A stretch of DNA of 64,000 bases from Steroidobacteraceae bacterium. GTDB lineage: Bacteria > Pseudomonadota > Gammaproteobacteria > Steroidobacterales > Steroidobacteraceae. The stretch is taken from contig JBAUYT010000090.1 in NCBI GenBank assembly GCA_049584935.1, positions 147 through 64,146 of the forward strand, written 5' to 3'. The notes beneath the pieces are model-generated. The model saw nothing but the letters and a program-made list of their open reading frames with translations, was not told where the DNA came from and ran no database searches. A program made the position numbers and the translations under genes. Below are positions 14,455-55,421 of the stretch, one piece after another; the stretch's first letter is position 1, and each line of letters begins with the position of its first letter.

Positions 14455-14466
14455 TGTAACGTAACA
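14455..14466. promoter_or_regulatory. Class-A operator candidate TGTAACGTAACA (1 mismatch)
   Basis: Second copy in the same divergent intergenic region. Confidence 0.5.
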
Positions 14467-19039: not shown

Positions 19040-19060
19040 GCGGCGCTCGACGGCGCTAGA

Positions 19061-19072
19061 GAAAACGTTTCC
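19061..19072. promoter_or_regulatory. Class-B LacI-type operator candidate GAAAACGTTTCC (1 mismatch to GGAAACGTTTCC)
   Basis: Lies in the 60-bp gap between the dehydratase stop and the P2 start, 28 bp upstream of ATG 19100. Confidence 0.5.
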
Positions 19073-19099
19073 ACTCTCGATCACTTGCAGGAGCGTCGC

Positions 19100-20506
19100 A
19101 TGGCCAGTCTCGATCCCCAGCAACTGTTTGCCGGCTTCGGCCGCTCCGACATCACGCCGGCGTGGAATTTTCCCAACGGCATGTGGATGGCGCAGAAACA
19201 CGCGCGCGGCAACGGCATTCATCGCCGCCTGTGTATCTCCTGCGTGGTGCTGGGGACAGAGGCGGACGCGGTGGCCCTGGTGAGCTACGACCTGGTACTG
19301 CTCTCCGTGCCGCAGGTGACTGCAATCCGCGAGGCCATTCGAGCCCGAACCGGCCTGCCCCTGGACCGCATCTGGCTGTATGTGACTCACAATCACGCCG
19401 GACCGATCACCCAGGATTTTTACGATCGCGAGGGCGCCGCGGAGGTGGCCGCCTATGTGGCGGCTCTGCCCGAGCGCAGTGCACAGGCGGCAGAGCAGGC
19501 CTGGCAGGGGCGGCGGGCGGCGCGTGCCCACAGCGGCATCGGAGAATGCCGCATCGGGGTCAATCGGGACCTCAATTACCGGGGTCGCATGATCACCGGG
19601 CCGAATCTCGCCGGCTTCGCCGATCCGGATGTCGGTGTGATCCGCCTGGATGGCATCGATGGCAGCCCCATCGCCGCCATCGTCACCTATGGATGCCATC
19701 CAACCTTCCTGGGCCCCGGGAATACCCTGATCAGCCCCGACTACCCAGGCGTGACGCGAGATGTATTTGAAGGCATCACCTCCGCCCCCTGCCTGTTCCT
19801 GCAGGCAGGAGCAGGCAATGTCGGGCCGTTGCGCGGCTTCCTCGCCGACATCACGGAGGTGGAACGATGCGGACACCTGCTGGCCTGCGCGGCGGCGCAG
19901 GCATACTTCGCGCTGCCGATGGAAGGATACCCGGCTACCATCGATCACGTGGTTGAATCAGGCGCTCCTCTGGGTATGGTGCGGGAGCAGCCTGCCTCGA
20001 CCGGGCACCAGGCCTTTCGCGCCATTGCCCGACAGGTTCCGTTGCCGACCGACAACCCCGGTCCCACGGTCTACGATTCGGTCGAGCAGGACATCGACAA
20101 CGCACGCGCTCGTGTCGAGCGCCTGAAGCGCGAGGGCGCGGCGGAACCGGACATCCAGCATGCAACGCAGCATCTGCTGCGTCATCGGCTGCGCGCCGAG
20201 CGCAAGCGCCTGTACGCAACGCCAGGGTTTCCCCTCGAGGTCGGTGCGTTATTGATCGGTAAGAGCTGCTTCATCAGCCTGGCGTGCGAGCCCTACGCGG
20301 AACTCGCCGTTGCCATCAAGCGCCGTTCACCCGCCGAAACAACCATCTTTGCCGGCTATGAGGGACCGGACGTCATTTATGTCGCGCCCGCCGAGTCCTA
20401 CCAGGAGCCACGGCCGATGGAGGTCTACAACTCGCCGTTCGGACCTCAGGCCGCCGAGCTGCTGGTCAACGCTGCCGTATCCATGCTGCATGAGCTGCAT
20501 CATTAG
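19100..20506 (+). CDS. Ceramidase_alk-like hydrolase paralog P2 (divergent copy)
   Basis: Blocks GRSDITPAWNFPNG, THNHAGP, TYGCHPTFLGPGNTLISPDY and LQAGAGNVGP are collinear with P1/P3/P4/P5 but much more diverged. ATG 19100 is preceded by CAGGAG. The TTG at 19085 is an unlikely start. Confidence 0.55.
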   Translation: MASLDPQQLFAGFGRSDITPAWNFPNGMWMAQKHARGNGIHRRLCISCVVLGTEADAVALVSYDLVLLSVPQVTAIREAIRARTGLPLDRIWLYVTHNHAGPITQDFYDREGAAEVAAYVAALPERSAQAAEQAWQGRRAARAHSGIGECRIGVNRDLNYRGRMITGPNLAGFADPDVGVIRLDGIDGSPIAAIVTYGCHPTFLGPGNTLISPDYPGVTRDVFEGITSAPCLFLQAGAGNVGPLRGFLADITEVERCGHLLACAAAQAYFALPMEGYPATIDHVVESGAPLGMVREQPASTGHQAFRAIARQVPLPTDNPGPTVYDSVEQDIDNARARVERLKREGAAEPDIQHATQHLLRHRLRAERKRLYATPGFPLEVGALLIGKSCFISLACEPYAELAVAIKRRSPAETTIFAGYEGPDVIYVAPAESYQEPRPMEVYNSPFGPQAAELLVNAAVSMLHELHH

Positions 20507-20574
20507 CGCCAGCGCGCGCCCCGCACTGCCGGCCTGCGGTTCATTGATTTCGTCGCAGGCGCATGGCAAAGTAT

Positions 20575-20586
20575 GGAAACGTTTCC
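20575..20586. promoter_or_regulatory. Class-B operator candidate, perfect palindrome GGAAACGTTTCC
   Basis: Lies in the 134-bp gap after P2, 55 bp upstream of ATG 20641. Confidence 0.6.
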
Positions 20587-20640
20587 CTTAAGCGCCGCTG
20601 CCGCCATCGGCAAGCAGCAACTATAAGTCCACCACTACCG

Positions 20641-21771
20641 ATGCCGGATGCCATTGATCGAATCGACGCCTGGGCGTGCAATGTGCCATTGCCCGAGCCG
20701 CTTGATTTCGGCACCTTCTCGGTGACCTCGCGGCGCTACGTCGCGCTGCGCGTGCGCACCACCGGCGGACTCGCCGCCGATGTGGTCGGGCACAGTCGCG
20801 GCTCGCCGATCGACGTGGCGATAGTGGACCTGCTGGGCCCCAAGTTCATCGGCACGGATCCCGGCGACATCCCCGCAAGAGTCGAGGACTTTCATCGGCT
20901 GACCATCGCGCTCGAACGAGACGGGGTGCTCGGTCGCGCCTGGTCGTTGCTCGAGCTTGCAATGCAGGGTCTGCGCGCTGCGGCGCAGGGGGTGCCGGTC
21001 TGGAGCCTGCTGGGCGGCAACGCGCGCGAGTTGCCCGTGCAACTGGTGGAGGGCTACGCGCTCGGCAACGAGAGCGATGAAAATTTTGCGAACCGGCTGA
21101 TCGCGCGCGCTCACGAGGGCTATGCCGCGCTCAAGGTCGAGGGTGCGCATTATCAGGATTGGAGAACGCTGGCACGGCGCCTCGAGCTGACGCGGCGCCA
21201 GGCACCTGACTGCCGCCTGGTGGTGGATTTTGCCTGGTCGTGGCGTACGGCGCGCGAACATGCCGATGCGCTGGCGGCGCTCGGTGAACTGGGCGTGGAC
21301 TGGATTGAGGACGCCTTTCCCTTGCACGCAGTCGATCAGTACGTGCTCGCTGGGACGCTCACGCGCGCTCCGATCGGCTGCGGTGATGAGGCCACGCGGG
21401 CGGCCGATCTGATGGCGCTGGTGGAGGCCGGCGCGCTGCAGGTCGTGCGGCTGGATGCTACCGCGCTCGGCGGGTTCTCAGCCGTGCTGCCCCTGACGCA
21501 AACGCTGGCACAGCGGCGGCGCCGCGTGTCCTTGCACGATTTCCCCGAAATTCACCAGCATGCGGCGCTCGCGGATACGGTGGTGGACCACATCGAAATG
21601 TTTCCTCGCGACCGGCCTTTCGACGTACGCCATCGTCTCACGCTACGGTCTGCGCACGAGCGTGTCGCACACGGCAAGCTGCTTCCGGAGAATGCAAGCG
21701 GTCTGGGCATCGTCCTGGATCTCGATCAGGTTGCGCGGCATTCCCTCCGGCACAGTCATGTGGGCCGTTGA
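20641..21771 (+). CDS. Enolase-superfamily (mandelate racemase/muconate lactonizing enzyme-like) protein, MR/MLE-2
   Basis: The N-terminal capping domain plus barrel blocks (ALKVEG, VVDFAWSW, WIEDAFP, VVRLD) fit the MR/MLE architecture. It is divergent from the other two copies. Confidence 0.7.
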   Translation: MPDAIDRIDAWACNVPLPEPLDFGTFSVTSRRYVALRVRTTGGLAADVVGHSRGSPIDVAIVDLLGPKFIGTDPGDIPARVEDFHRLTIALERDGVLGRAWSLLELAMQGLRAAAQGVPVWSLLGGNARELPVQLVEGYALGNESDENFANRLIARAHEGYAALKVEGAHYQDWRTLARRLELTRRQAPDCRLVVDFAWSWRTAREHADALAALGELGVDWIEDAFPLHAVDQYVLAGTLTRAPIGCGDEATRAADLMALVEAGALQVVRLDATALGGFSAVLPLTQTLAQRRRRVSLHDFPEIHQHAALADTVVDHIEMFPRDRPFDVRHRLTLRSAHERVAHGKLLPENASGLGIVLDLDQVARHSLRHSHVGR

Positions 21772-21787
21772 TTAGGAGAGCTTTCTA

Positions 21788-22582
21788 ATGGCGAAGCGAG
21801 TCGTTGTGATTACCGGGGGTGCGTCGGGCATCGGCTGGGCCGCCGCCGAGGCCTTCCTCGAGCGCGACTGGTCAGTGATCATTGCCGACCGCGAGATCGA
21901 GCGTCTTCATGAGCGCCGGGGGGATCGTGCCGCCGCCATGGAGACCGTCCTGATTGATGTCACTTCGCAGGAATCCGTCGAGCATGCCTTTGCAGAGGTA
22001 TCCGCACGGCATGACCGGCTCGACGCGCTGGTCAACAGCGCCGGAATCCAGCGGTGGACTTCGCTGGCACAGCTGGATTGGCAGGCCTGGAATTCGGTGC
22101 AGGATGTCAATCTCAACGGTACTCTTCGCTGCCTGCAGGCCGCCGGTGCGCGGATGATCCCGCAGGGTCACGGCGCCATCGTCAACCTTTCCTCGGTAGC
22201 CGGCGTTCGCGGTGTACCGAACCGCACACCCTACGCGGCCTCGAAGGCCGGAGTCGAGGCGGTCACGCGCAGTGCCGCCGTGGAATGGGCGACGGCGGGG
22301 ATTCGCGTCAATGCGGTGGCTCCCGGCTATGTGGAATCCGAGCTGGTGCAGGAGTACGTCAAGACCGGACGGCTGGCGCTCGAACCGATTCTCAACAGAA
22401 TTCCGATGCGTCGGATGGCAAGGCCTCAGGAGATCGCCGATCTGATCTGCTATCTGTGCTCGGAGCAATCCTCGTACATCACCGGACAGGTAATCGCGGT
22501 GGACGGCGGCTTTCTCGCCGACTACGGAGTGCCCGCAGCGGCACCGAGCGTCCCCCAGGCGAGTAACACCCCAACCAAGTGA
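21788..22582 (+). CDS. Short-chain dehydrogenase/reductase (SDR)
   Basis: Contains ITGGASGIGWA, NSAG and YAASKAGV. Confidence 0.9.
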   Translation: MAKRVVVITGGASGIGWAAAEAFLERDWSVIIADREIERLHERRGDRAAAMETVLIDVTSQESVEHAFAEVSARHDRLDALVNSAGIQRWTSLAQLDWQAWNSVQDVNLNGTLRCLQAAGARMIPQGHGAIVNLSSVAGVRGVPNRTPYAASKAGVEAVTRSAAVEWATAGIRVNAVAPGYVESELVQEYVKTGRLALEPILNRIPMRRMARPQEIADLICYLCSEQSSYITGQVIAVDGGFLADYGVPAAAPSVPQASNTPTK

Positions 22583-22604
22583 CCCAACAGATGGAATCGA
22601 CCCT

Positions 22605-23594
22605 ATGAACCCTCCAGACTCTGCGCGCGAACCGTTCTCAGGACTGCCGCCGGGGGATGAAAGCGCGCTGCTGCTTACGATGTGTGTGATCCGCGAATTC
22701 GAAGTGGAAGTCCAGAAGCTGTTCGCACAGGGATTGGTGCGCGCAACCACTCATCTCTACCAGGGACAGGAAGCGGTGGCGACCGGCGCCTGCGCTGCCC
22801 TCAAGAGTGGTGATTCGATGACCTGCACCTACCGCGGACACGGCGCCGTACTGGCCATGGGTGTGTCCTTGAGCCGTGCGCTCGGCGAGATCCTGGGGCG
22901 TGCCGGCGGCCTGTGCGGCGGCAAGGGAGGCTCGATGCATCTGACGGACGTGGCGCGCGGCGCCATGGGCTCCAATGCCATCGTCGGCGCGCACCTGCCG
23001 ATCGCCAACGGACTGGCCTTCGCGGCGCGTTACCGGCGCACGGATGCGGTCTCGCTCTGCTTCTTTGGCGACGGCGCCACCAACATCGGCGCCTTCCATG
23101 AATCGATGAATCTCGCCGGAATCTGGCGGCTACCCGTCATCTTTGTCTGTGAGAATAACCTCTACGGAGAGTACTCCCCCGTTCACACCACCACTCCGGT
23201 CGCCCGATTGTCCGACCGCGCCGCAAGCTATGGCATGCCCGGGATTCCGGTCGATGGTAACGATGTGCTGGCCGTACGCGAGGCCACCACGCAAGCGCTG
23301 CAGCGCGCGCGCAGCGGCGCCGGTCCCACCATGCTCGAAGCGCTGACTTACCGCTTCGTCGGACACTCGCGATCGGACCCGGCCGCGTACCGCCCGCCCG
23401 GGGAACTGGAGCATTGGTTGGCACGCGATCCGATCGCGCTCAGCGCCGAGCGCCTGCGCCAGACCGGGATGGCGGAAGCGACGATTACGGCGATTCGCGA
23501 CGAGGCCATACGGCGTGTGTCGGCGGCCTCGCAGGAAGCGCGCAAGTGGCCGCCGCCCTCGCCAGCAGCACTGCACACACGAGTCTACGCATGA
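22605..23594 (+). CDS. TPP-dependent 2-oxoacid (pyruvate/acetoin-type) dehydrogenase E1 alpha subunit
   Basis: Contains YRGHG, GKGGSMHL, and GDGATNIGAFHESMNLAGIWRLPVIFVCENNLYG (TPP-binding motif). Confidence 0.9.
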   Translation: MNPPDSAREPFSGLPPGDESALLLTMCVIREFEVEVQKLFAQGLVRATTHLYQGQEAVATGACAALKSGDSMTCTYRGHGAVLAMGVSLSRALGEILGRAGGLCGGKGGSMHLTDVARGAMGSNAIVGAHLPIANGLAFAARYRRTDAVSLCFFGDGATNIGAFHESMNLAGIWRLPVIFVCENNLYGEYSPVHTTTPVARLSDRAASYGMPGIPVDGNDVLAVREATTQALQRARSGAGPTMLEALTYRFVGHSRSDPAAYRPPGELEHWLARDPIALSAERLRQTGMAEATITAIRDEAIRRVSAASQEARKWPPPSPAALHTRVYA

Positions 23595-24574
23595 GTGAGC
23601 TCACTTATCGTCAGGCGATCAACCGGGCCCTCGACGCGGAACTCGCTGCCGATCCAGAGGTGTTCCTGATCGGCGAGGACATAGGCGCCGGGGGCGGCGT
23701 ATTCAAGGTGACCGATGGCTTGTTCGCAAAATACGGCCCCGAGCGCGTCTTCGATACACCCATTTCGGAACAGGCAATCGTCGGCTGTGCGCTGGGTGCG
23801 GCCATGCAGGGTCTCAGGCCTGTGGCGGAGATCATGTTTTCCGACTTCACGGCAGTGTGCTTCGATCAGATCGCCAATCAAATCGCAAAATGTCGCTACA
23901 TGAGCGATGGCCAGATCGCCCTGCCCTTGACGATCCGCATGGCTACCGGTGCCGGCAGCGGTTTCGGCGCCCAGCATTCCCAGTCGGCCGAGCAATGGTT
24001 ACTGAACGTGCCCGGCCTCAAGATTGTCGTGCCTTCGACCCCGTCGGATGCGTATTGGATGCTGCGTGCGGCCATTCGCGATCCTGATCCCGTGCTCTAC
24101 TTCGAACACAAGGCGCTCTACGGAAAAAAAGGCGAGATCGTCGAGCACGAGTCGACGCCGCCACTCGGATCGGTGAATGTCCTGAAACCGGGCACCGATC
24201 TCACCATTGTCGCCAGTCAACTCATGCTGCACTACGCGCTGGAGGCAGCCAAGGGCCTCGCCACCAGCGGCATCTCGGCGGAGCTGCTCGACGCAAGAGT
24301 GCTGCGACCGCTCGATCTCGCCACAATCCGCGCCAGCGTGCTACGCACGGGGCGGCTGTTGATGGTTCAGGAGGCCCCGTCACTCGGCAGCTGGGGTGCC
24401 TCGGTCATCGCTGCGCTCGCAGCAGAATCGCCGGCGCCCTGGCGACAACCCGTTGTTCTATTGGGTGGCGCGGACACGCCGATCCCCTACGCGGCCGATC
24501 TCGAAGCAGCCTATCTGCCGAGCGTTCAGCGCATAACCGATGCCGCCCAAAACCTGATGCACGCTTCCGCCTGA
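23591..24574 (+). CDS. 2-oxoacid dehydrogenase E1 beta subunit
   Basis: MSELTYRQAINRALDAELAADPEVFLIGEDIG... is the canonical E1-beta N-terminus. ATGA overlap with E1 alpha. Confidence 0.9.
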   Translation: MSELTYRQAINRALDAELAADPEVFLIGEDIGAGGGVFKVTDGLFAKYGPERVFDTPISEQAIVGCALGAAMQGLRPVAEIMFSDFTAVCFDQIANQIAKCRYMSDGQIALPLTIRMATGAGSGFGAQHSQSAEQWLLNVPGLKIVVPSTPSDAYWMLRAAIRDPDPVLYFEHKALYGKKGEIVEHESTPPLGSVNVLKPGTDLTIVASQLMLHYALEAAKGLATSGISAELLDARVLRPLDLATIRASVLRTGRLLMVQEAPSLGSWGASVIAALAAESPAPWRQPVVLLGGADTPIPYAADLEAAYLPSVQRITDAAQNLMHASA

Positions 24575-24584
24575 GGGTGAACCC

Positions 24585-25751
24585 ATGACTAACCAGCGTT
24601 CGGCAACCGTTGCGATTTCCTCCCCATCCGACGCAGCGGGCATGCGGATCGAGTCGATCGACATTACCGCCATTCGTGTTCCGCTAAAGCGGATCTATCG
24701 CGGCAGCTATTACCAAATGTCACACCGCTCGACGCTGCTGTGCCGGGTCACTACGCAAAGTGGCATCGTCGGCGAAGCCTGGGCCGGCGATGAGGATGCC
24801 GCACTGCTGGAAATTGCGGCGATCGTGCAGCAGGAAATTGCGCCCAAGCTGCTGGGACGCGACGGCTCGCAGCTGGAAACCTGCTGGCAGGCCGCGCGGC
24901 CGGCCACCTTCAATATCCTGCGCGACCGTCGGCTCGGTCTGGTGGCCTGTGCCTGCGTCGATACGGCGCTCTGGGATGCGCTCGGTAAATCGGCCGGACT
25001 GCCGCTGTGGAAGCTGTGGGGTGGCTTCAGGAACGCCCTGCCGATGATCGCCATAGGAGGCTACTACGATGACATCCCCATTGCGGATGAGATGGAACAG
25101 CTGCGCAAGCTCGGCCTTGCCGGCATAAAATTTAAAGTTGGCGGTCGTTCGCCTGCCGAAGACGCGGCACGCGTACTGGCGGCGCGCCGCGCCGCGGGGG
25201 CCGATTTCGTGATCTGCGTCGATGCCAATCAGGGCTACAGCTACCGCGAAGCGCGCGAATTCGTACATCTCTCGACCGAGGCGGACATCTACTGGTTCGA
25301 GGAGCCGTGCCATTGGGACAACGACAAGATTCATATGCGCGATCTGCGTGCCACAACCGGAATACGCGTATGCGCGGGCCAGTCGGAATTTTCGGCGACG
25401 GCCTGTCGTGAGCTGATGTCGATCGGCGCCATCGATGTGTGCAACTTCGATGCCTCCTGGTCCGGCGGCCCGACCGAGTGGCGCCGGGCCGCCGCTGCTT
25501 CCATGACCTTTGGCATCCAGATGGGACATCACGAGGAACCGCAGGTCGCTTCGCATCTGCTCTGTTCAATCCCCAACGGCACCTTCGTCGAATGCTTCCA
25601 TCCAGACCGGGACCCCATCTGGTGGAATCTGGTGGCAAACCGGCCGAAGTTGGTCAACGGCATGCTTACACTGCCCAGCGGGCCTGGACTCGGCTGGGAA
25701 ATCGATCGCGACTACGTGGCTCGCTACCGCGTGCCGATGAGCGGCGACTGA
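24585..25751 (+). CDS. Enolase-superfamily (MR/MLE-like) protein, MR/MLE-3
   Basis: Contains DTALWDALGK, GIKFKVGG, VDANQGY, WFEEP and IDVCNFD (metal-ligand-bearing barrel strands). Confidence 0.8.
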   Translation: MTNQRSATVAISSPSDAAGMRIESIDITAIRVPLKRIYRGSYYQMSHRSTLLCRVTTQSGIVGEAWAGDEDAALLEIAAIVQQEIAPKLLGRDGSQLETCWQAARPATFNILRDRRLGLVACACVDTALWDALGKSAGLPLWKLWGGFRNALPMIAIGGYYDDIPIADEMEQLRKLGLAGIKFKVGGRSPAEDAARVLAARRAAGADFVICVDANQGYSYREAREFVHLSTEADIYWFEEPCHWDNDKIHMRDLRATTGIRVCAGQSEFSATACRELMSIGAIDVCNFDASWSGGPTEWRRAAAASMTFGIQMGHHEEPQVASHLLCSIPNGTFVECFHPDRDPIWWNLVANRPKLVNGMLTLPSGPGLGWEIDRDYVARYRVPMSGD

Positions 25752-25768
25752 TTCAGGAGCCTGCAACA

Positions 25769-26764
25769 GTGACCATCGTCATCGGCATGCCGACGCTGTC
25801 GGCATCCATGGATAGCGGTACGGTAACAAAGTGGCGAGTTGCCGTGGGCGAGCGCATCCGCGCCGGCCAAATCATCGCCGAGATCGAAACCGACAAGGCC
25901 GTTCTTGAATACGAATCGCCGGAATCTGGAACGGTGTTACGCCTGCTGGCCGAGGCAGGCGGCGGCGCGATAGCCGTGGGAGCACCGATCCTCGAGTTGG
26001 CTCAAGCTGAGGACGGCTCCGCCGCAATGCCATCGCAGTCTGCCGCCAAAGCGCCTCGCGCCGGCGATTCGGCCGCCGGCTCGCCGCAGATCGCGAAATT
26101 TTCGGCTGTGCGACGCCTCATTGCTGAACGGGTAGTCGAAGCGAAACGTACGATTCCGCACTTCTACGTGGCGCATGAGATGCGCATGGATGCGGCCATG
26201 GCAGCCATCGCTCGCCTGCGCCATGGTGGCACGGCAAAGTCGATTTCGATCAACACTCTGATTCTCAGCGCGCTCGCCAACACCCTGCGGTTGCATCCGG
26301 AACTGAATGTCGTATCCGCTGCGGACGGCACATTGGCGTTACCGTCGATCGATATTGGTGTTGCGGTCGCCACCGCGGAAGGGGTGTTCCTGCCCGTAAT
26401 CAGAAACGCTGCAACCCGATCGCTCACCGACATCGAGTCGGAAGTGGCGCGCCTGCGCAGCGCGGCCGAACGCCGCAGCCTGCAGCAGCATGAGTTCACT
26501 CAGACCGCGATCAGTCTCTCGAATCTGGGGATGCATGGCGTAGACGCCTTCGCCGCGATCATCAGTCCGCCGCAAGTCATGATGCTGGCGGTGGGCCGCG
26601 TCGCGCAGCGTCCCATAGTCGTGGATGGCGCAATCTCGATAGGCTTCACGATGCACTGCGTGCTTTCGTGCGACCACCGCGTCATCGATGGCGCGCAGGC
26701 TGCTGGATTTCTTGCGACGGTGCAGGACTCATTGAACGATAGCCAGTCGATCGCTGGTCGATGA
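25769..26764 (+). CDS. 2-oxoacid dehydrogenase E2 (dihydrolipoamide acyltransferase)
   Basis: A single lipoyl domain (IAEIETDKAVLEYESPESG) is followed by an Ala/Pro-rich linker. The catalytic domain ends in LSCDHRVIDGAQAAGFL. GTG 25769 follows CAGGAG. Confidence 0.88.
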   Translation: MTIVIGMPTLSASMDSGTVTKWRVAVGERIRAGQIIAEIETDKAVLEYESPESGTVLRLLAEAGGGAIAVGAPILELAQAEDGSAAMPSQSAAKAPRAGDSAAGSPQIAKFSAVRRLIAERVVEAKRTIPHFYVAHEMRMDAAMAAIARLRHGGTAKSISINTLILSALANTLRLHPELNVVSAADGTLALPSIDIGVAVATAEGVFLPVIRNAATRSLTDIESEVARLRSAAERRSLQQHEFTQTAISLSNLGMHGVDAFAAIISPPQVMMLAVGRVAQRPIVVDGAISIGFTMHCVLSCDHRVIDGAQAAGFLATVQDSLNDSQSIAGR

Positions 26765-27760
26765 ACCCGCTCGCGGACGGCCACAGCTTGGTCCGAAGCG
26801 AAAGCTCACAGGTAGAACCTTGGTGCGCGCCGGCGCTCCGCCAATCATCGACACGAGCATCTCGGCACTCTCACGTCCGAGCAGCAGCAGATCGCGCGTA
26901 ATGACTGCCTGTTTTGGCTGCAGCGCATCCATCAGTGGCACCTCGTCGCAGGTGACCAGCGACACATCCTGCGGGATGCGCAGCCCCAGGGTAGTGATGG
27001 CGCGCAATACGCCGATCAGAATCTGGTTACTGCCGGCAATGATCGCCGACGGCGCCGGGGTACTGGTCAGCAACTCGTGCGCGCTCGCCTCTCCATGCGC
27101 GTCAGCATAGGATCCCGGACGCGTGATGCCCGTAATCGACAGCTTGCCGCAGGCCTTTACGAACGCCTGGCTGCGCTCCCGTGTCGGCCGCGTAGCTGGC
27201 GTACCACCGATAAAGGCCAGGCGTTGGTGCCCGAGCTGCGCCAGCGCCGCAACCGCGTCGGTGAGGCCCACCTGGTGATCGAACAGAACGCGGCCGAAAT
27301 TCGCCAGTCCCGGCAGATCGCGATCGAGAATGACGCCCGGCGTCTTGATCGCGGCGAGTTGCGCGCGCGTCTCGCGATTGCTCTCATCGACCACGGAGAC
27401 GAGCATGCCATCCACACGGTGCCGTTGCAGTGTCTCCAGCTGCGAGACTTCGTTCTGGGCTCCTTCGGCGGAGTTGGCAATCAGCATCGCATAGCCATGA
27501 CTCTGCAGCGACTGCCCTGCCCCGGTGATGATCTGGGCAAAGGTGGGATTGGCGATGTTTGCAACCACGCAACCGATGGTCGAGGTAGTGCCGCGTCGCA
27601 GGCTGCGCGCAACCGCATCGGGAATGTAGCCGACGGCGCGCGCTGCCTCGAAGATGCGCGCCCGCGTCTCTGCGCTGACCGACTCACCGGGCGAGAACGC
27701 ACGTGAAACCGATGAAACCGCTACGCCCGCACGCTGGGCTACCGCGCGGATGCCCTTCAG
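26729..27760 (-). CDS. LacI-family transcriptional regulator (LacI-2), start codon unresolved
   Basis: The ORF track starts at GTG 27568, but the same frame is open up to 27868. It encodes KGIRAVAQRAGVAVSSVSRAFSPGESVSAETRARIFEAARAVGYIPDAVARSLRRG, a complete LacI HTH plus hinge. That stretch contains no ATG/GTG/TTG. CTG 27758..27760 would give MKGIRAV... and is used here as the nominal start. Confidence 0.7.
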   Translation of the reverse strand: MKGIRAVAQRAGVAVSSVSRAFSPGESVSAETRARIFEAARAVGYIPDAVARSLRRGTTSTIGCVVANIANPTFAQIITGAGQSLQSHGYAMLIANSAEGAQNEVSQLETLQRHRVDGMLVSVVDESNRETRAQLAAIKTPGVILDRDLPGLANFGRVLFDHQVGLTDAVAALAQLGHQRLAFIGGTPATRPTRERSQAFVKACGKLSITGITRPGSYADAHGEASAHELLTSTPAPSAIIAGSNQILIGVLRAITTLGLRIPQDVSLVTCDEVPLMDALQPKQAVITRDLLLLGRESAEMLVSMIGGAPARTKVLPVSFRFGPSCGRPRAGSSTSDRLAIVQ

Positions 27761-27889
27761 TTTGCGTACGCCGTTACGCCGCTTCGGCCGCTCAGGCCTG
27801 GTCTGGTTTGTGCTTCTGGCGATGATTCGTGCCTGGCGTATGATTGCGGTACCTGCAAGGCAGCCTATCTATGCCAATACAAGCGCCGC

Positions 27890-27901
27890 GGAATCGTTTC
27901 C
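27890..27901. promoter_or_regulatory. Class-B operator candidate GGAATCGTTTCC (1 mismatch)
   Basis: Lies in the divergent region between LacI-2 and the isomerase-like gene, consistent with autoregulation by LacI-2. Confidence 0.5.
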
Positions 27902-27911
27902 GGATCGTCCC

Positions 27912-29366
27912 ATGCCGTGCTGCAGCGGTCAAGCGCACGAGGCCTGGGCGTGCTCGGGTGCTACCGTGACTTTGTCAAATACACGGCGCGCGCGGTTGGG
28001 ATTTCTGTCGGCGTTCTTTGGTTACTACGACGACGTGATGGGATCGGGATTCCGGCGCACTCAGGCACAGATCATTGCCGAAAATCGCGCCGTTCTCGAA
28101 AGCCATTTCGAGGTCATCGATTTTGGAATGATTTCCAGCCACGAGCAGGCCGGGAGTGTCGCACCAAAAATCGCCGCCGCGGGCATCGAGGTGCTGGTGT
28201 ATGCGCCGGCCATGGTCGCTCCGCCGGCGTGGATCGAGACCGCGCTGAGCGATCTTGCCTGTCCGATCCTGATCTGGAGCGCAACCCGGCAGGACGCTAT
28301 TCCCGAGGGCCTGGATCATCTGCAGGCGACGGTCCATACCTCGCTGGTCGGCGCAACGATGCTCTCGAATTGTCTGGTCAGGGGGCAAAAACGCTTCGCC
28401 GTCGTGGATGCGGTCCCAGGCAACCCTGGCGATGAGGCCAGACTCATGCGCTCCATCACGGCCGCGGTGGCCGCGCACAGACTCACCACCGCCGTGGCGC
28501 TTCGCATCGGCACTCCGATTGCCGGCTATCGCGACGTGGAATCCACCCCCGAGGAACTCGCGGCCATCGGCGTTCGTGAAGTGACCGTTCCAGTCGCAGA
28601 ACTCGAGGCGGCGTTTGCCCGCGTTGCCGCCGCCGATGTGGAGGCCGAGCTCGAGAGGCTGCAGGCGCGGTCCGGCTGGCACGCACCGCCAGCGGACGCT
28701 TCGGCCGCGAGCGCACGTCTCGCGCTGGCAATGCGCCGCCTGGCCGACGAGCATGGCGCCACCCTCGGCACCGTGAACTGCCACAGTGACTGGCTCCGGC
28801 AGAACCGGCAGATCGGCATCGTGGCCTGTCTGGGCGTATCTTGCCTGCACGAGAGCGGGATTCCGTTTTCCTGCACCGGGGATCTGCCCGCGGCCATGGC
28901 CGGATTGCTGGCGAAGACTTTGTCGGGGGCTGCCCTCTATTGCGAACTGTATGTACGCGAACCGGCGAGCGACGAATTCCTGGTGGCCGCCGGCGGCGAA
29001 GGCGATCCGGGCTGGGCCGATGGGCAGGTCACGGTGATGCCGAACCAATACTATCCGGGCCAGTGCGGCGCCGGACTGGGGGTGCGTTTCGCACTAAGGC
29101 ACGGTCCGGCAACGCTCATCGCGATGACACCAACCTCCGGGGCCTGGCGAATGATTTGGGCAGGCGGCGACATCACGGGGCGGTCCTTCTCACGGTTGGA
29201 CGGTCCGAATGGCATGTTCCGCTTCACCACCCAGCCGGGCCATCGTGCCGCCGAGGAGTGGATCGGCGCCGGGCCCACACATCATCCCGCGCTGGCGCGC
29301 GGCATTCTGGATCTGGAGCTGCCATTGGTCGCACGCCTCGCGAAGCTCGAGAGTATCCGCATCTGA
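27912..29366 (+). CDS. L-arabinose/L-fucose isomerase-like protein
   Basis: Collinear resemblance to AraA-type isomerases. Examples: LGFLSAFFGYYD against VWFVIGSQHLYG, VLVYAPAMVAPPAW, PILIWSAT, CTGDLPAAMAGLL, and WIGAGPTHHPALAR against WILAGGAHHTVFS. The start is either ATG 27912 or GTG 27966. The 27654 extension overlaps LacI-2 and is rejected. Confidence 0.55.
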   Translation: MPCCSGQAHEAWACSGATVTLSNTRRARLGFLSAFFGYYDDVMGSGFRRTQAQIIAENRAVLESHFEVIDFGMISSHEQAGSVAPKIAAAGIEVLVYAPAMVAPPAWIETALSDLACPILIWSATRQDAIPEGLDHLQATVHTSLVGATMLSNCLVRGQKRFAVVDAVPGNPGDEARLMRSITAAVAAHRLTTAVALRIGTPIAGYRDVESTPEELAAIGVREVTVPVAELEAAFARVAAADVEAELERLQARSGWHAPPADASAASARLALAMRRLADEHGATLGTVNCHSDWLRQNRQIGIVACLGVSCLHESGIPFSCTGDLPAAMAGLLAKTLSGAALYCELYVREPASDEFLVAAGGEGDPGWADGQVTVMPNQYYPGQCGAGLGVRFALRHGPATLIAMTPTSGAWRMIWAGGDITGRSFSRLDGPNGMFRFTTQPGHRAAEEWIGAGPTHHPALARGILDLELPLVARLAKLESIRI

Positions 29367-29378
29367 GCCGCCCCGCGC

Positions 29379-30263
29379 TCAGAGCGGTGCATCCACGATG
29401 CTACCCTCGCGGATGGCGATGACCAGCACACCGGTCAGGACCAACGCGCCACCGAGGATGCTCCGGGCCGTCAATCGATCCCCCAGCATCAGCACTCCCA
29501 GCAGCACCGACAGTATGGGAGAGACAACGTTGAGCGGTGCCAGCCTGCTGATCGGGTGAGCACGCACCAGCGTGTAGAACCCGCTGTGCGCGGTGAGATT
29601 ACCGAGCAGCGCCGTAATCAACACCGCGCTCCAACCATGCCAGTCCGCATGCGCGAGGGCTGCGGCTTGCCCGGATTCCAGCGTCAGTGTCAGCAGTAGC
29701 ATCAACGCCAGACCGCTCCAGGCGATCAAGGCTTGCAGCTGCAGTGGCCAGAGGCGCGCGGCGTGTCGCTTGACCATGATGAGCCCGAGCGCGCCGAGGC
29801 CCGAGGAAATGACGACCAGCGCGAGTCCAAATCTATGGTCGAACATGTGCGGATCGAAGCTGAGGATGCTCATCCCAAGCAAAGAGATGATGATCCCGGT
29901 CCAGCGGCGCCAGTGCACCACCTCGCCGAGCAGCCAAATCGACAGCAGTGTCGTAAAGGGTACGGTGAGCTGCGTGGCGATGGCAGTCGCCGATATGTTG
30001 CCCGAGTATTTGATGCCGGTGCTCAACAGGGCGACGGCCACGCCGCCCGACAACAGCGCGGCAGTCAGCAGAAAGCGCATCTGTCCCGGGTACCAGCGCA
30101 GGAAGGGCAACAAGGGCAGCGCGAACACGGTGAAACGCAAAGTGCTGAAAAGCAGCGGCGGAAACTGGTTGATGCCCACTTTGCTGGCTACCAGCGTGAT
30201 GCTCCACAGGACATTTAGTCCCAGCATCATCAGAACCGGATGGGGCTGTTGGAGCGCCTTCAC
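29379..30263 (-). CDS. DMT-superfamily EamA-like transporter
   Basis: 294 aa with ten hydrophobic segments in two similar halves, the typical EamA layout. Confidence 0.8.
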   Translation of the reverse strand: MKALQQPHPVLMMLGLNVLWSITLVASKVGINQFPPLLFSTLRFTVFALPLLPFLRWYPGQMRFLLTAALLSGGVAVALLSTGIKYSGNISATAIATQLTVPFTTLLSIWLLGEVVHWRRWTGIIISLLGMSILSFDPHMFDHRFGLALVVISSGLGALGLIMVKRHAARLWPLQLQALIAWSGLALMLLLTLTLESGQAAALAHADWHGWSAVLITALLGNLTAHSGFYTLVRAHPISRLAPLNVVSPILSVLLGVLMLGDRLTARSILGGALVLTGVLVIAIREGSIVDAPL

Positions 30264-30325
30264 TGGAGAGAGCCTCGGAGGCAGGCGAGCGCGCGCCCAC
30301 CGGCCGCAGGGCCCGGAGTCCTCGC

Positions 30326-31714
30326 TCAGCTCATGGCAACGATGGTGGCTGAGGCCTCTTCAGTCATTTGCTGCAGGGCCTCGGGCTCGTAAATCGCGAT
30401 TCGCACCTGGTATACGTCGCGTCCGAAGGCAGCTGGGCTGGGCAGATAAGTGGTTGCGCCATCCGATAGGTTGAGCACCGCAATGGCGGCATCCGGAAAG
30501 GCCTTGCGCAATTCCTGCTGGAAGCGGCTGTAGGGCTCTGCCGGTGTCGAGACGATGAAGGCATCACCGAGCCGCCAAACCGTGAACGGCATCTGCGCAT
30601 GCGAATCGTCACCGGCCAGCTCGCGTCGACCGAGCGTGCGCTCGAGACGTTCGATTTCGAAGTGCTCAGTAGCGGTGGCGAGCTGGGCCTGAATCTGCTC
30701 ACGTGTGGGCATTTCGCGCACCCGCAGCGTCGCGCTCGGGAGCTGGGCCGATAGCTGCTCGCTGATCGAATCCTTGGGCCGCAGGCGCCACACGCCGAGC
30801 GGAGTGCCCGACTCTTCGATGCCCATATACTGCAGCTGCTGTCCGGGCGGAAACATCGAGGCCAGAACCGACAGGGCGGCAAACCCCAGCTCGCGACCGT
30901 TCTGATCCGCCGCCTCGACCTGCGTCTCGTAACTACGCCGAGGGGTCATGTCCCCGGAAGCGCCGTGAAAGAATACGCAGGGCGCACCACCGGTCTCCTG
31001 CTGCACCAGCTCGCGCATGGCGCCCACGTAATCCGGCGACAGCAGCCGGTTACCGCCGCCGAGCGATACCGGATGACAGGCATAGTTGACGATGGTGGCC
31101 GAGATCTTGCCGGTGCGGTCGGTGACGCGGCCGACCAGCACTGTGTCATCGGCAGCCTCTTGCAGGTTCAGCCCGCAGATATCGCGCTGTGTGACCGCAT
31201 CGACGGCATCGCGATTGAACGCCAGGCTGCAGCGCCCATAGGCCCAGCTCAGGATCGACTCGCGCGCACCGGCTCGCGCCTGCTCGATCAGCTCGCCGCA
31301 CACCTGCGGGATCGACTCCAGGTATGGTTCGATCAGTTCTCCACCCGGTCGATCGAGGTGCCGCTTGGCCAGAAAGGGGGTGCTGTGAGAGTGCGAGGGG
31401 TGAAAAATCAGTTGCTCGCGCCGCAGTCCGCAGCGGGTCTGTACGATCGAGCGGATCTTGTCGGCGGCGAGCGGCCAGAACACCAGCGCATCCAGCGTAA
31501 TCAAGACCAATTCCGTTTTACGCGCCAGATCACGAAACAGCAGGCAACTCGCCAGCAGCGGCCGGTGGACCCCTTCGGCCACATCGTGAACAGCACTGCC
31601 CCAGGTGCGCGCATGGATGCCGACTGGAGGCGTAATCTCGCGGCTTGCGACACCGATCTCGCCGTGAAACTCCGGATGTCTCAGGCGGTTGGTCGTTTCA
31701 TGGGCAGCTGGCAT
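30326..31714 (-). CDS. Ceramidase_alk-like hydrolase paralog P3
   Basis: Contains IGVASREITPPVGI, HPSHSHSTP, NYACHPVSLGGGNRLLSPDYVGAMRE and FFHGASGDMTPRRSY. It aligns along its full length with P4 and P5. A GGGGAA SD precedes the ATG. Confidence 0.6.
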   Translation of the reverse strand: MPAAHETTNRLRHPEFHGEIGVASREITPPVGIHARTWGSAVHDVAEGVHRPLLASCLLFRDLARKTELVLITLDALVFWPLAADKIRSIVQTRCGLRREQLIFHPSHSHSTPFLAKRHLDRPGGELIEPYLESIPQVCGELIEQARAGARESILSWAYGRCSLAFNRDAVDAVTQRDICGLNLQEAADDTVLVGRVTDRTGKISATIVNYACHPVSLGGGNRLLSPDYVGAMRELVQQETGGAPCVFFHGASGDMTPRRSYETQVEAADQNGRELGFAALSVLASMFPPGQQLQYMGIEESGTPLGVWRLRPKDSISEQLSAQLPSATLRVREMPTREQIQAQLATATEHFEIERLERTLGRRELAGDDSHAQMPFTVWRLGDAFIVSTPAEPYSRFQQELRKAFPDAAIAVLNLSDGATTYLPSPAAFGRDVYQVRIAIYEPEALQQMTEEASATIVAMS

Positions 31715-31729
31715 GGAATTTCCCCTGGT

Positions 31730-32890
31730 TCAGGCATCCGCCGGCACGGCGAGTCGGCGCGATTGCTCGAGCGATGGTGGAATAACGAGAAGCAGGCCAA
31801 CCAGATAGCAACAGCCGGCCAGCGCGCCGACCGGCCAGTGTCCGGCCGATGCCACGATCATGGCGGCACAGGCCGGTCCCAGCGCGGCACCACCGGTCGT
31901 CATCGTGCAGCCGATCAGGTTCAGGCGTCCGAGGCGGTCGTAGTGGGCGAGAAGCCCCATCTGATAGGGAAGGCCATAGAACCAGGACAGCGCAATCAGT
32001 CCGCAGGCCAGCGCGAACAGCGCCGGGGTGTCTCCAAATACCAGGAGCAACGCGGCGACGACGGACACGCCCAATGAGAGGACCTGCGGCCAGAGGCGCC
32101 CCAGCCGCATTCCGAGCCAACTGGCCAGCATCGATCCGATCACACCCCAGGTGAGCATCGAAATGCCCAGCCATCGGCTGACGGATTTCGGGTCCATGCC
32201 AAGACTGACGCCGATCCTTTCCTGGTAGGCCCAAATTGCTCCGTGCCCGGTGTAGAGCAGCAGCATCATCAGTAGCACCATCACCACCCGCGGGTTCAGC
32301 AGCGCTGCGGACGCCGTCCCTGCCACCCGCTGCCGCCTCGTCGCCGTGGCGGCGGGTACGGCTGGAATCCATGGCAACAGCACGGCGGACACGGCGGCGA
32401 TCGCCGCCAGCGTCGCGAAGATCCCGGGCAGCTGCCAGGTGGCCAGAATGAACGGTGTAATGGGCATGAAGATGCCCGAATAGGCGATTGATACGGCGTT
32501 GACGATGGCAAACAGGTGCTCCGGACGCTCCTGCGCCGCACCCGCCCGCAGGTACACCGAGAACACCATGGCGCTGCCGAGCCCCACGACGAACTGGATG
32601 GCGAGCATCGGGGCGTAGCTATGGACCGAGCAAGCGATCAAATTGGCGACCGCTATGGTGATCACTCCCGTGCTCGCGAGCACCCGCTGGCGCAATCGAT
32701 GCGCCAGACCGACGAGCACCACGAAACCCACCCCCACCCCGGTCATTTCCAGCGCCGCGACGAACCCCGCTTGTGACTCCGTAAATCCCAGTCGGTCGAC
32801 CAGTGCGCCGACGATGATCGGCTGCACAGCCATGCAGCCGTTACCCACCACCGACAGCGCGTTGATGGCGATCAGCGGCTTGAATTGCAT
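31730..32890 (-). CDS. MFS transporter, paralog of 5360..6520
   Basis: It starts at the internal ATG 32890 (MQFKPLIAINAL...), which aligns with the start of the 5360 MFS. It has about 12 TM segments. Confidence 0.8.
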   Translation of the reverse strand: MQFKPLIAINALSVVGNGCMAVQPIIVGALVDRLGFTESQAGFVAALEMTGVGVGFVVLVGLAHRLRQRVLASTGVITIAVANLIACSVHSYAPMLAIQFVVGLGSAMVFSVYLRAGAAQERPEHLFAIVNAVSIAYSGIFMPITPFILATWQLPGIFATLAAIAAVSAVLLPWIPAVPAATATRRQRVAGTASAALLNPRVVMVLLMMLLLYTGHGAIWAYQERIGVSLGMDPKSVSRWLGISMLTWGVIGSMLASWLGMRLGRLWPQVLSLGVSVVAALLLVFGDTPALFALACGLIALSWFYGLPYQMGLLAHYDRLGRLNLIGCTMTTGGAALGPACAAMIVASAGHWPVGALAGCCYLVGLLLVIPPSLEQSRRLAVPADA

Positions 32891-32927
32891 GATCTGACCG
32901 CGCCTCTCAGCGCCAGCGGCATCTAAT

Positions 32928-32939
32928 GGAAACGTTTCT
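32928..32939. promoter_or_regulatory. Class-B operator candidate GGAAACGTTTCT (1 mismatch)
   Basis: Lies 38 bp upstream of the MFS start codon at 32890. Confidence 0.5.
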
Positions 32940-33046
32940 CGGGCGCGGTCGCGGATCGGGGTCGGGATCGGCGTTGCGCACTTGTGGTGCACTTTGCCAA
33001 GGCCGCCAGCTGCAGCGGCGCAGGTTGCGCCGCTCAGGGTGGCAGT

Positions 33047-33628
33047 TCACGCCTGCTTGACTCGCGCAGAGCTTGGCGTGCCGATGGTGGTTGCGTCGAC
33101 GATGGTGCCATTCTCGATTTGAATGCCGCTGCGCCGCAATTGTTCGGTAACCTGCGAGGCCAGCTTCTTTTCCAGTCGCTTGCGCTGCAGCAGATCTCGA
33201 AACCGGCCGATCACCGTAGCATCCGGTGCCGCCTCCACCACCAGATCGATGCGGGCGAATTCACGCATCGCCGCGGAATCGTACAGCGATTCTTCGACCG
33301 CCAGATCCGACAGGTTGAACCACAGCTGCAGAAAGTAGATACGCAGCATGCGCTCGAGCCATCGCGGCGCGGGCGCGTCTTCTCCCTCGAGCTGCACGCA
33401 GTACGGTTGCACCTGCTCCGCCATGCGGGCCCAGGGCACCATCCAGTCCATATCAGCGAGAAACTGCGCCCGGCGTGTCACGCGGCCGTATCGTTCCAAT
33501 CCGCTGAGCTTCTGCCGCTGCATGTTCATGCGCAGCCGCGACCGGTGGGATAGATAAATGGGATTCGCGGGATTCGCAGGCAACCGAGCAACCGATACAC
33601 GTGACATGTCGCGCCTCCGCAGGACCAT
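33047..33628 (-). pseudogene. IS5-family transposase remnant (N-terminal third only)
   Basis: ...RRAQFLADMDWMVPWARMAEQVQPY...RMLRIYFLQLWFNLSDLAVEESLYDSAAMREFARIDL...GTIVDATTIGTPSS matches the conserved N-terminal region of IS5-group transposases. It stops where the DDE catalytic domain should begin. Confidence 0.75.
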
Positions 33629-33957
33629 TCCGTCGAAGAGATAACTACCAGACAGGCGAGCCGTGCGCCTGCATCTTTCCAGTGCCTCCGGGCCTGTTGC
33701 TGCACCATGTCAGATCTCATTCCTTGGTCGACAGACACTGTTGCAAGTTGCCAACAACCCCGGCTGGCGGTCGCGACGCGTCCCCGCCTGATAAACCGGG
33801 AGCCGCATCCCGCCCTTCATCCGCATCTTCGATTTTACGGAACCGATTCCGACCCCCTCCGCTTGACCGAAATGTTCGCACTGGAGAGCAGGCCTATGCA
33901 AGCACTTTTTGACTGCAGTGGCAGGTTGACGCATTAAACGCACGGATGTGATACTAA

Positions 33958-33969
33958 GGAAACGTTTTC
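33958..33969. promoter_or_regulatory. Class-B operator candidate GGAAACGTTTTC (1 mismatch)
   Basis: Lies 165 bp upstream of the AstE-like gene ATG at 34134. Confidence 0.5.
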
Positions 33970-34133
33970 ATTCGAGCCTGCAAACGACTCCGGGCGCACT
34001 CCGGAGGCCCGCTCAAGACTGCGCTGCGCTGTCATCATGAGCGTGTCCAACCCCCCACAGGCGGGGCCGGGGCGTGTCCATGCCGAGCGACTCCGCCGCG
34101 CGCGAATCGGCCCGCCGGGTCCCAGGAGGCTGC

Positions 34134-39797: not shown

Positions 39798-39809
39798 TGT
39801 AACGTCACA
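39798..39809. promoter_or_regulatory. Class-A operator candidate TGTAACGTCACA (1 mismatch), abutting a TATAAT box
   Basis: Lies in the 83-bp divergent region between the PhyH and NHL genes. TATAAT at 39793..39798 shares its final T with the first base of the site. Confidence 0.5.
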
Positions 39810-40868: not shown

Positions 40869-40880
40869 TGTAACGTTACA
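40869..40880. promoter_or_regulatory. Class-A operator candidate, perfect palindrome TGTAACGTTACA
   Basis: Lies 107 bp upstream of the hydantoinase A ATG at 40987. Confidence 0.6.
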
Positions 40881-48626: not shown

Positions 48627-48746
48627 GAAGGCGTTCAGTAGCCAACGTCGGCGGGCAACATGCGGGAGAGTGTACGACTTCTGTAACGCCGCGATGCATC
48701 CATGGGATAGCGTCGAGCAACGTGCCAGCGGTCATCGGCGTGGCGC

Positions 48747-49553: not shown

Positions 49554-49732
49554 GGTGTGGTTTGGGCGTTCCGGTGAGTGGGGAGGCGAGAGCCCTGCGA
49601 ATAGTACGCCGCAGGATCAGAGCCCCCAAACACCCGGGTGGCTCGGCGACTACTGGCCTGCCTACAGCACGGGCGCTACCATGCCGCAAAGCGGGCGCCG
49701 ACGAAGCCGCTGCACTAGCGAGGTCCGCAACG

Positions 49733-50614: not shown

Positions 50615-50619
50615 TCGCC

Positions 50620-51384
<765 letters not shown>

Positions 51385-51392
51385 GATCCGAC

Positions 51393-55400: not shown

Positions 55401-55421
55401 ACCCGCCGGAACTTCCGCCAC

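Follow-up and report, generated by a model that had tools for sequence, protein, structure and literature searches.

Class-B palindromes as probable operators of the local LacI-family repressor LacI-2 in a ceramidase-like gene island of a Steroidobacteraceae bacterium

A 64,000-nt stretch of contig JBAUYT010000090.1 from a Steroidobacteraceae bacterium (hereafter the window, in whose numbering coordinates without a locus prefix are given) encodes two LacI-type regulators, LacI-1 and LacI-2, and five ceramidase-like paralogues, P1 to P5. We propose, with a probability of roughly 0.8, that the five copies of the palindrome GGAAACGTTTCC found in this stretch (class B), probably together with the related sequence GGAACCGATTCC at 33839, are operators of the local repressor LacI-2. 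The palindromes lie in non-coding DNA, overlap promoters, are conserved at homologous positions of related loci and occur together with the regulator gene. From this pattern we infer physical binding by LacI-2, repression as the direction of regulation, and control by an effector.

Class-B palindromes and their promoters

A scan of the window returned exactly five matches to GGAAACGTTTCC at up to one mismatch where 0.04 are expected, a number that was reached in none of 100 dinucleotide-preserving shuffles; the inner core AAACGTTT is present four times against 0.14 expected. The same five sites, at exactly these coordinates, had been listed in the original prediction, at 19061, 20575, 27890, 32928 and 33958. 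They are given here with the promoter modules to which they belong and with the candidate sixth site:

19061..19072, no strand assigned: B1 (GAAAACGTTTCC), in the 60 nt that separate the stop of MR/MLE-1 (19039) from the ATG of P2 (19100)
20544..20586, plus strand: module of the MR/MLE-2 operon, TTGATT-N17-TGg-CAAAGT-at-GGAAACGTTTCC, with putative operator B2 (perfect) at 20575-20586
27890..27932, minus strand: module of lacI-2, TTGACC-N17-TGg-GACGAT-cc-GGAAACGATTCC, with putative operator B3 (GGAATCGTTTCC) at 27890-27901
32928..32939, no strand assigned: B4 (GGAAACGTTTCT), upstream of the MFS ATG (32890, minus strand), putatively serving MFS-P3-EamA
33926..33969, plus strand: module of the AstE-P4-M20-hypothetical operon, TTGACG-N18-(TG)GATACT-aa-GGAAACGTTTTC, with putative operator B5 at 33958-33969
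33839..33850, no strand assigned: candidate sixth operator GGAACCGATTCC, intergenic, two mismatches, 119 bp from B5

Because the window has a G+C content of 63.5%, the longest open reading frames run past the true gene starts, and starts were refined by G+C content at third codon positions, ribosome-binding sites and orthologue alignments. After this refinement all five sites are indeed intergenic, as is the one at 33839, although non-coding DNA makes up only about 6% of the window; the five occupy the gaps 19040-19099, 20507-20640, 27800-28037, 32891-33046 and 33629-34133. Their predicted contexts are likewise correct, namely upstream of P2, of MR/MLE-2, of MFS-P3-EamA and of AstE-P4-M20-hypothetical, and in the divergent region between lacI-2 and the isomerase-like gene. 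The sites precede the start codons by 27 nt (P2), 37 nt (MFS), 54 nt (MR/MLE-2), 90 nt (lacI-2, counted from its ancestral start) and 164 nt (AstE), and B3 in addition precedes, by 64-136 nt, the isomerase-like gene that diverges from lacI-2. Loosening the scan to two mismatches adds only two sites, 21594 and 33839. The former was rejected as an operator, since it falls within the coding sequence of MR/MLE-2 and its centre is TG; it is probably non-functional.

The motif is short, and a short sequence may recur by chance or as a non-regulatory repeat such as the end of a mobile element or a methylation or restriction site. We give this explanation practically no credence, since none of the shuffles reached the observed count, the sites are all intergenic, their flanks are unrelated to one another except for promoter elements, and their orthologous positions are conserved across a synonymous divergence (dS) of 0.3-0.7.

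Three of the modules, those of MR/MLE-2, lacI-2 and AstE, are built alike in that the operator begins 2 nt past the extended -10 element and so covers the expected transcription start. A sigma-70 consensus scan reported the AstE promoter only, and the promoters of MR/MLE-2 and lacI-2 were recognised by conservation together with the shared TGn-hexamer-NN-operator geometry. The lac repressor at O1 acts by promoter occlusion from an operator located just downstream of -10, and the position right after -10, overlapping the transcription start, resembles that arrangement at these three promoters. LacI-2 bound there as a dimer, with one helix-turn-helix per GGAAAC half-site and the hinge-helix leucine (of AVARSL) entering the central CpG, would occlude the start of transcription. 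In other lineages the operator instead occupies the spacer between -35 and -10, and both geometries would imply that RNA polymerase is blocked. Release of LacI-2 would be brought about by a metabolite of the pathway, as is usual for local regulators of the LacI family. Unlike the lac repressor, LacI-2 has no obvious C-terminal leucine heptad in an alignment read by eye, and no sign of tetramerisation was seen there.

The site at 33839 is invariant in four relatives and is probably a sixth, weaker operator. Its homologue in locus L102 belongs to a pair of sites 118 bp apart, each with the start of a divergent gene at a distance of 32-34 nt. For the window a DNA loop joining 33839 and 33958 was considered, and two divergent promoters are preferred, given the pair in L102; the 33839 site is thus best read as the operator of an ancestral divergent promoter. 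A DUF772 transposase fragment (33047-33628, minus strand, 193 aa) stands between the AstE and MFS operons at the same position in all close relatives and is therefore an old insertion sequence remnant inside the regulon. It now separates the 33839 site from MFS-P3-EamA and has probably left it stranded. On the other side of B5 the AstE leader of about 165 nt (33970-34133), which ends at ATG 34134, holds several blocks that are conserved in relatives and a GC-rich hairpin, CTCCGGGCGCACTCCGGAG; Rfam gave no match anywhere in the window, this leader included.

The P2 site is found directly behind MR/MLE-1, the last gene of an operon with class-A sites (see below). It may act as a roadblock or place P2 under both regulators, a suggestion we make with low confidence. 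B1 is kept in L001 and L002 and is degenerate (central CC) in L010. The counterpart of B4 is a perfect palindrome in L001, L010 and L018, compared with which the MFS operator of the window carries one extra mismatch. The sequence TGGCAAAGTGCAC upstream of MFS was considered as a sigma-54 promoter and rejected by eye for its wrong GG-GC spacing.

Conservation of the sites and their pairing with the regulators

LacI-2 is encoded as follows:

26729..27799, minus strand: lacI-2, with a LacI helix-turn-helix (HTH; PF00356) and a periplasmic-binding-protein-like effector domain

In the conceptual 356-aa protein PF00356 scores 41.4 bits (cut-off 27) over residues 17-61, and the effector domain scores 92.3 bits with Peripla_BP_3 and 62.7 bits with Peripla_BP_1. 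Its best PDB matches are LacI-family regulators (3bil, RbsR, CcpA, LacI and PurR); no NCBIfam equivalog comes near its cut-off, and there was no characterised orthologue among them. The nearest relatives, 70-94% identical, are all metagenomic, and LacI-2 was not found by the patterns with which 185,579 species-representative genomes were scanned. The recognition helix quoted in the original prediction, VAVSSVSRA, is read from about 27724 on the minus strand. In 11 orthologues the segment GIRAVAQRAGVAVSSVSRAF is invariant, as are V86, A87, R88, S89 and L90 of the hinge (...YIPDAVARSLRRG...), whose string AVARSL is identical to the PurR hinge. In this family hinge residues Ala51 and Leu54 insert into the central CpG of the operator (PMC2978694). 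At its 3' end lacI-2 converges with the E2 gene, and the two overlap by 36 nt (26729-26764).

We compared 24 loci with a LacI-2 orthologue (L001-L022, L102 and L103) and 77 genome loci that encode P-family proteins, scanning for class B and for class A (TGTAACGTTACA), the second palindrome of the window, at up to one mismatch. Loci with LacI-2 only (215 kb) contain 47 class-B and 2 class-A sites, loci with LacI-1 only (184 kb) contain no class-B and 22 class-A sites, and loci with neither regulator (1.15 Mb) contain 2 and 3, respectively. The counts form a double dissociation, as expected if each motif belongs to the adjacent regulator.

The placement of the sites follows the same pattern. Synteny with the window extends to L001-L004, L010-L013 and L018, where the motif is found at homologous positions. 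Elsewhere (percent identity in brackets) lacI-2 is preceded by two sites in L006/L007 (70%), and a further two fall between the divergent TonB-receptor and isomerase genes there; a P3-lacI-2 operon has a site in its promoter in L005 and L016 (79%), with a further site before MR/MLE-2 in L016; MR/MLE-2 of L008 (78%) is preceded by a perfect site; and L015 and L102 (80%) have sites before lacI-2, with additional ones in L102 before MR/MLE-2, before a divergent P-gene/amidohydrolase pair and before a hydantoinase operon. The operator thus stays at the promoter of lacI-2 or its operon across several lineages while its geometry differs: in L005, L006 and L016 the putative autoregulatory operator fills the -35/-10 spacer (TTGACGtGGAAACGTTCCCgagcTATCGT). 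The autoregulation that had been proposed for LacI-2 is supported by this persistence. At the dS of 0.34-0.66 that separates the window from its relatives, retained intergenic 12-mers are informative. An alignment of six sequences upstream of MR/MLE-2, among them the 71-73%-identity lineages L008 and L016, has a mean column identity of 57%, and in it all 12 operator bases are invariant, together with the -35 core TTGA (TTGACC in four relatives) and a TGGCA.AGT block. Conservation of the motif at homologous promoters in about seven lineages, taken with the double dissociation, argues for the assignment of the class-B sites to LacI-2.

Might the sites instead be bound by some other LacI-family factor encoded elsewhere, with the adjacency of lacI-2 as a by-product of synteny? 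The AAACGTTT core is common to many LacI-family operators and our view of this genome is restricted to 64 kb. Moreover, the identical 14-mer, TGGAAACGTTTCCA, is already among the operators that the Camas dataset predicts for unrelated factors of the LacI family, so that the sequence type is known. Such a factor would not account for a motif that is absent from the LacI-1-only loci and nearly so from the 1.15 Mb of P-family loci without LacI-2, nor for an operator that persists at the promoter of lacI-2 or its operon through rearrangements, and the recognition helix of LacI-2 and the motif are both invariant. We therefore regard another factor as improbable and LacI-2 as the likely ligand of the class-B sites.

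The second class is represented in the window by six sites at up to one mismatch, all of them non-coding:

5252: class A
14361: class A
14455-14466: class A, one mismatch (TGTAACGTAACA)
14593: class A
39798-39809: class A, one mismatch (TGTAACGTCACA)
40869: class A

Three of them lie in the divergent region between a TonB-dependent receptor and an aminotransferase and one in the PhyH/NHL divergent region. The units concerned are the TonB-dependent receptor-P1-SSF-SDR-lacI-1 operon, the divergent aminotransferase-epimerase-lactonase-MR/MLE-1 operon, an amino-acid permease/MFS pair, the PhyH/NHL pair and a hydantoinase A/B-P5-SDR operon. By site positions the partition that had been put forward, with P1 and P5 in class A and P2, P3 and P4 in class B, is correct as a description, and LacI-1 would use TGTAACGTTACA for these separate units. 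The prediction had further held that two paralogous LacI regulators are kept from cross-talk. The separate motif-regulator pairs stand, whereas close paralogy does not: the DNA-binding regions of LacI-1 and LacI-2 are 33% identical (91 residues) and part of their effector domains about 23%. Judged by their sequences, the two are distant members of the family and not recent duplicates.

As had been noted, the two classes share their core and differ in outer bases, and the difference is confined to NT-4 and NT-6. The recognition residues and half-sites are as follows:

LacI-2: AA-15 Val, AA-16 Ser, AA-20 Arg; half-site GGAAAC, with NT-6 G, NT-5 G and NT-4 A
LacI-1: AA-15 Val, AA-16 Met, AA-20 Asn; half-site TGTAAC, with NT-6 T, NT-5 G and NT-4 T

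A published recognition code ties AA-15/16 to NT-5/4 and AA-20 to NT-6, with Arg20 going with G, and in its Table S1 T stands at NT-4 in every Met16 class (Camas, Alm and Poyatos 2010, PMC2978694). The proteins from which it was derived are TVSR, a subgroup to which neither LacI-2 (SVSR) nor LacI-1 (TVSN) belongs. The code agrees with Arg20/G6 in LacI-2, with Met16/T4 and the pairing of a residue other than Arg20 with a base other than G at NT-6 in LacI-1, and with Val15/G5 in both, and Ser16 with A4 is its majority rule. The comparison of recognition helices that the original prediction had recommended thus favours the proposed pairing over a swap through Met16/T4 and Arg20/G6, and does not favour it in the (Val15, Ser16) cell, which is taken up below. 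The code therefore backs the pairing of LacI-2 with class B and of LacI-1 with class A in part.

These data also bear on the idea that each regulator binds both classes, which would make one joint regulon of the two. The classes do agree in their CG centre, at NT-1 to NT-3 (AAC) and at NT-5 (G), and Val15 is present in the two proteins alike. In addition, P2 lies behind a class-A operon, paralogous enzymes occur in both regulons, and the hydantoinase operon has class A in the window and class B in L102. Then again, the differences at NT-4 and NT-6 are tied to the differing residues 16 and 20, the motif classes are strictly separated by regulator across loci, and no hybrid sites were seen among them. 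We consider joint binding quite unlikely and retain separate pairs.

Membership of the regulon is plastic. The hydantoinase A/B operon has a class-A site at 40869 in the window and a class-B site in L102 (L102:56), a swap of regulators from one lineage to another. L001, L002, L010, L012, L013 and L018 carry an extra class-B operator between MFS and P3. The spacer between these genes is about 135 nt long in L001 (5713-5846), against 15 nt without an operator in the window (31715-31729). L002 and L012 lack the segment bearing the operator upstream of MFS and have the one between MFS and P3 instead.

State of lacI-2 in this genome

Several observations weigh against the assignment of the class-B sites to a LacI-2 that acts as a repressor here. 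Many of the LacI-2 loci are close relatives, so that the 47 sites amount to about seven independent lineages, and regulator gene and motif always share one syntenic locus. The conserved core is no more than 12 bp long, weakly extended by T-R-T, compared with the 16-22 bp typical of curated LacI-family motifs (Ravcheev et al. 2014, PMC4052901). No sigma-70 promoter was recognisable at the P2 and MFS sites in the consensus scan. In the recognition code the (Val15, Ser16) cell gives GT and not the observed GA at NT-5/NT-4, a low-confidence entry (r=0.38). Where all 19 orthologous loci examined begin lacI-2 with ATG, codon 1 in the window (27799-27797) is AGG, preceded by a weakened Shine-Dalgarno sequence (AGAAG in place of AGGAG, 27817-27813). 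The gene may therefore be hypomorphic or null in this genome.

Is LacI-2 then still made? The 19 orthologous start regions (18 plus that of L100) all have ATG with a GGAG-type Shine-Dalgarno sequence, and in the window about seven substitutions are clustered within 30 nt around the start (27797-27817, minus strand). There is no in-frame ATG, GTG or TTG between the stop at 27869-27871 and the HTH; the first canonical start, GTG 27568, yields a product of 279 aa that lacks it. Near-cognate in-frame codons before the HTH are CTG 27760, ATC and ATA, and a start at CTG 27760 would give an N-terminus of PurR length, as judged from an alignment with the PurR sequence. The dN/dS of lacI-2 in comparisons with the window is 0.08-0.10, the level found between intact alleles. 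Long-standing pseudogenisation was rejected on this ground, as there is no relaxation, and with the operators intact the lesion would be recent or the protein would be translated from a near-cognate codon.

The most serious alternative accepts the class-B sites as LacI-2 operators and holds that LacI-2 itself is null or strongly hypomorphic here, so that the regulon is constitutively or largely derepressed and the sites are recent relics. It draws on the AGG start and the AGAAG sequence, on the HTH-less product of the first canonical start, on the extra mismatch in the MFS operator and on the absence of the MFS-P3 operator from the window. The same AGG/AGAAG sequence is present in an independent Logan assembly (SRR28042096; L101) that is 99.98% identical over 4.8 kb, although this assembly may come from the same sample. 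A further environmental allele, L100 (JGI Ga0395652_0038119, L100:1654; homologous to window 27584-27611), has a 28-nt frameshifting deletion that removes hinge-helix codons; it hints at recurrent loss of repression, or is an assembly error. What speaks for a working repressor is that the reading frame is otherwise intact, that dN/dS is normal, that four of the five operators match those of the relatives in quality and that CTG 27760 would restore the PurR-length N-terminus. Moreover, LacI-type repressors work at very low copy number, as is established for E. coli LacI. On balance we hold loss of LacI-2 function to be a real possibility that falls short of being the favoured account, and continue to treat LacI-2 as the likely repressor of these units. 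Whichever applies, automated annotation yields the HTH-less 279-aa protein, and expression in this strain may be constitutive.

Regulon content, known systems and significance

By the positions of the sites the LacI-2 regulon would comprise six transcription units with 16 genes: P2; MR/MLE-2-SDR-E1 alpha-E1 beta-MR/MLE-3-E2; lacI-2; the isomerase-like gene; MFS-P3-EamA; and AstE-P4-M20-hypothetical. The genes concerned, with the remaining P paralogues, are:

10280-11734, minus strand: P1
19100-20506, plus strand: P2, divergent neutral-ceramidase-like paralogue
20641..26764, plus strand: six-gene operon MR/MLE-2, SDR, E1 alpha, E1 beta, MR/MLE-3, E2 acyltransferase
28038..29366, plus strand: isomerase-like gene, divergent from lacI-2, alternative start GTG 27966
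29379..32890, minus strand: MFS-P3-EamA operon
30326-31714, minus strand: P3
34134..38898, plus strand: AstE/DoeB-like deacylase, P4, M20 peptidase and hypothetical gene, one operon
35223-36620, plus strand: P4
44806-46245, plus strand: P5

In all lineages the operon from MR/MLE-2 to E2 forms the regulon's conserved core. P1, P3, P4 and P5 are mutually 48-64% identical, and P2 is 26-31% identical to them. The similarity of the P family (about 460 aa) to neutral ceramidase is confined to the N-terminal catalytic domain (PDB 2zws, E=4.5e-10), and there is no NCBIfam model for its members. The family has more than 565 hits among species-representative genomes, in Proteobacteria, Bacteroidota, Planctomycetota and Thermoleophilia; the nearest genomes, with at most 69% identity, are Steroidobacteraceae, Rhizomicrobium and other proteobacterial metagenome-assembled genomes. 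The isomerase-like product resembles the C-terminal part of L-arabinose isomerase and, weakly, sulfoquinovose isomerase. For the AstE-like protein the closest match is DoeB, whose cut-off of 402 bits it misses with a score of 268, and MR/MLE-1 passes the cut-off for galactonate dehydratase (318.6 bits against 311). Further amide and ester hydrolases lie at 47034-56267 (Amidohydro_3, two polysaccharide deacetylases and MmgE/PrpD, with an amino-acid ABC transporter). No LacI-type sites occur within 47034-56267, and the island is thus broader than the two regulons.

The system is an uncharacterised case of the well-known local regulons of the LacI family. In that family 1173 of 1303 factors have even palindromes with a central CG, more than 75% of the sites lie 30-140 nt upstream of start codons, and 72% of the regulators are autoregulated (PMC4052901). 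The class-B site is likewise an even palindrome, GGAAAC/GTTTCC, with central CG, and NT-1 is C in all 68 half-sites of 34 distinct class-B sites that were collected. LacI-2 further resembles the LacI/GalR local repressors catalogued there in combining the LacI HTH with a periplasmic-binding-like domain, in its apparent autoregulation, in the location of most sites upstream at family distances and in a local regulon made up of neighbouring operons for catabolism and transport. It differs in the 12-bp conserved core and in that no recognised sugar pathway is involved, ceramidase-like amidases, a DoeB-like deacylase, M20, MR/MLE and E1/E2 proteins taking its place.

The likeness extends to individual regulators. 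The operators of E. coli RbsR, PurR and Cra/FruR have xxAAACGTTTxx cores. Class B has the same inner half-site, AAAC/GTTT, with specificity residing in NT-4 to NT-6, and the hinge string is that of PurR. The outer bases are GG here, in contrast to CG (RbsR), GC (PurR) and TG (Cra), and the recognition helix of LacI-2 reads V-S-S-V-S-R where those of RbsR, PurR and Cra are T/S-rich. Sequence similarity is at the level of the family only; divergence between the PurR and RbsR motifs has been described (PMC4052901). Control by CcpA was considered and rejected. The cre consensus is TGWAANCGNTNWCA, and CcpA acts with the Gram-positive co-repressor HPr-Ser-P. With its flanks class B reads TGGAAACGTTTCCA, which has G/C at positions 3 and 12, where cre needs W. 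LacI-2 scores 121.8 bits with the ccpA equivalog against a cut-off of 442, and the nearest genomic relatives are Proteobacteria. A search of a library of papers did not find the motif in a bacterial context, nor anything that links ceramidase-like genes with LacI, TonB-dependent receptors and MR/MLE enzymes.

One may speculate further, and we do so with considerable doubt, that LacI-2 represents an uncharacterised orthogroup whose effector is no classical sugar but perhaps a metabolite of the N-acylated amine or amino-polyol type. LacI-1 and LacI-2 would then control a new catabolic pathway of several operons around ceramidase-like amidases, with operons swapped between the two and LacI-2 recurrently inactivated in peat and soil populations, much as in selection for constitutive mutants.

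The current understanding of LacI-family regulation is left unchanged by these results. They provide a regulatory map, with promoters, putative operators, six units and 16 genes, for an otherwise unannotated gene island. LacI-1 with class A and LacI-2 with class B offer a natural test case for the recognition code beyond TVSR. The island encodes widespread, uncharacterised ceramidase-like amidases, and the proposed regulon boundaries indicate which genes act together. The core, consisting of the MR/MLE-SDR-E1/E2 operon with a P amidase, a transporter and the isomerase-like enzyme, would be the best lead to the pathway and its inducer.

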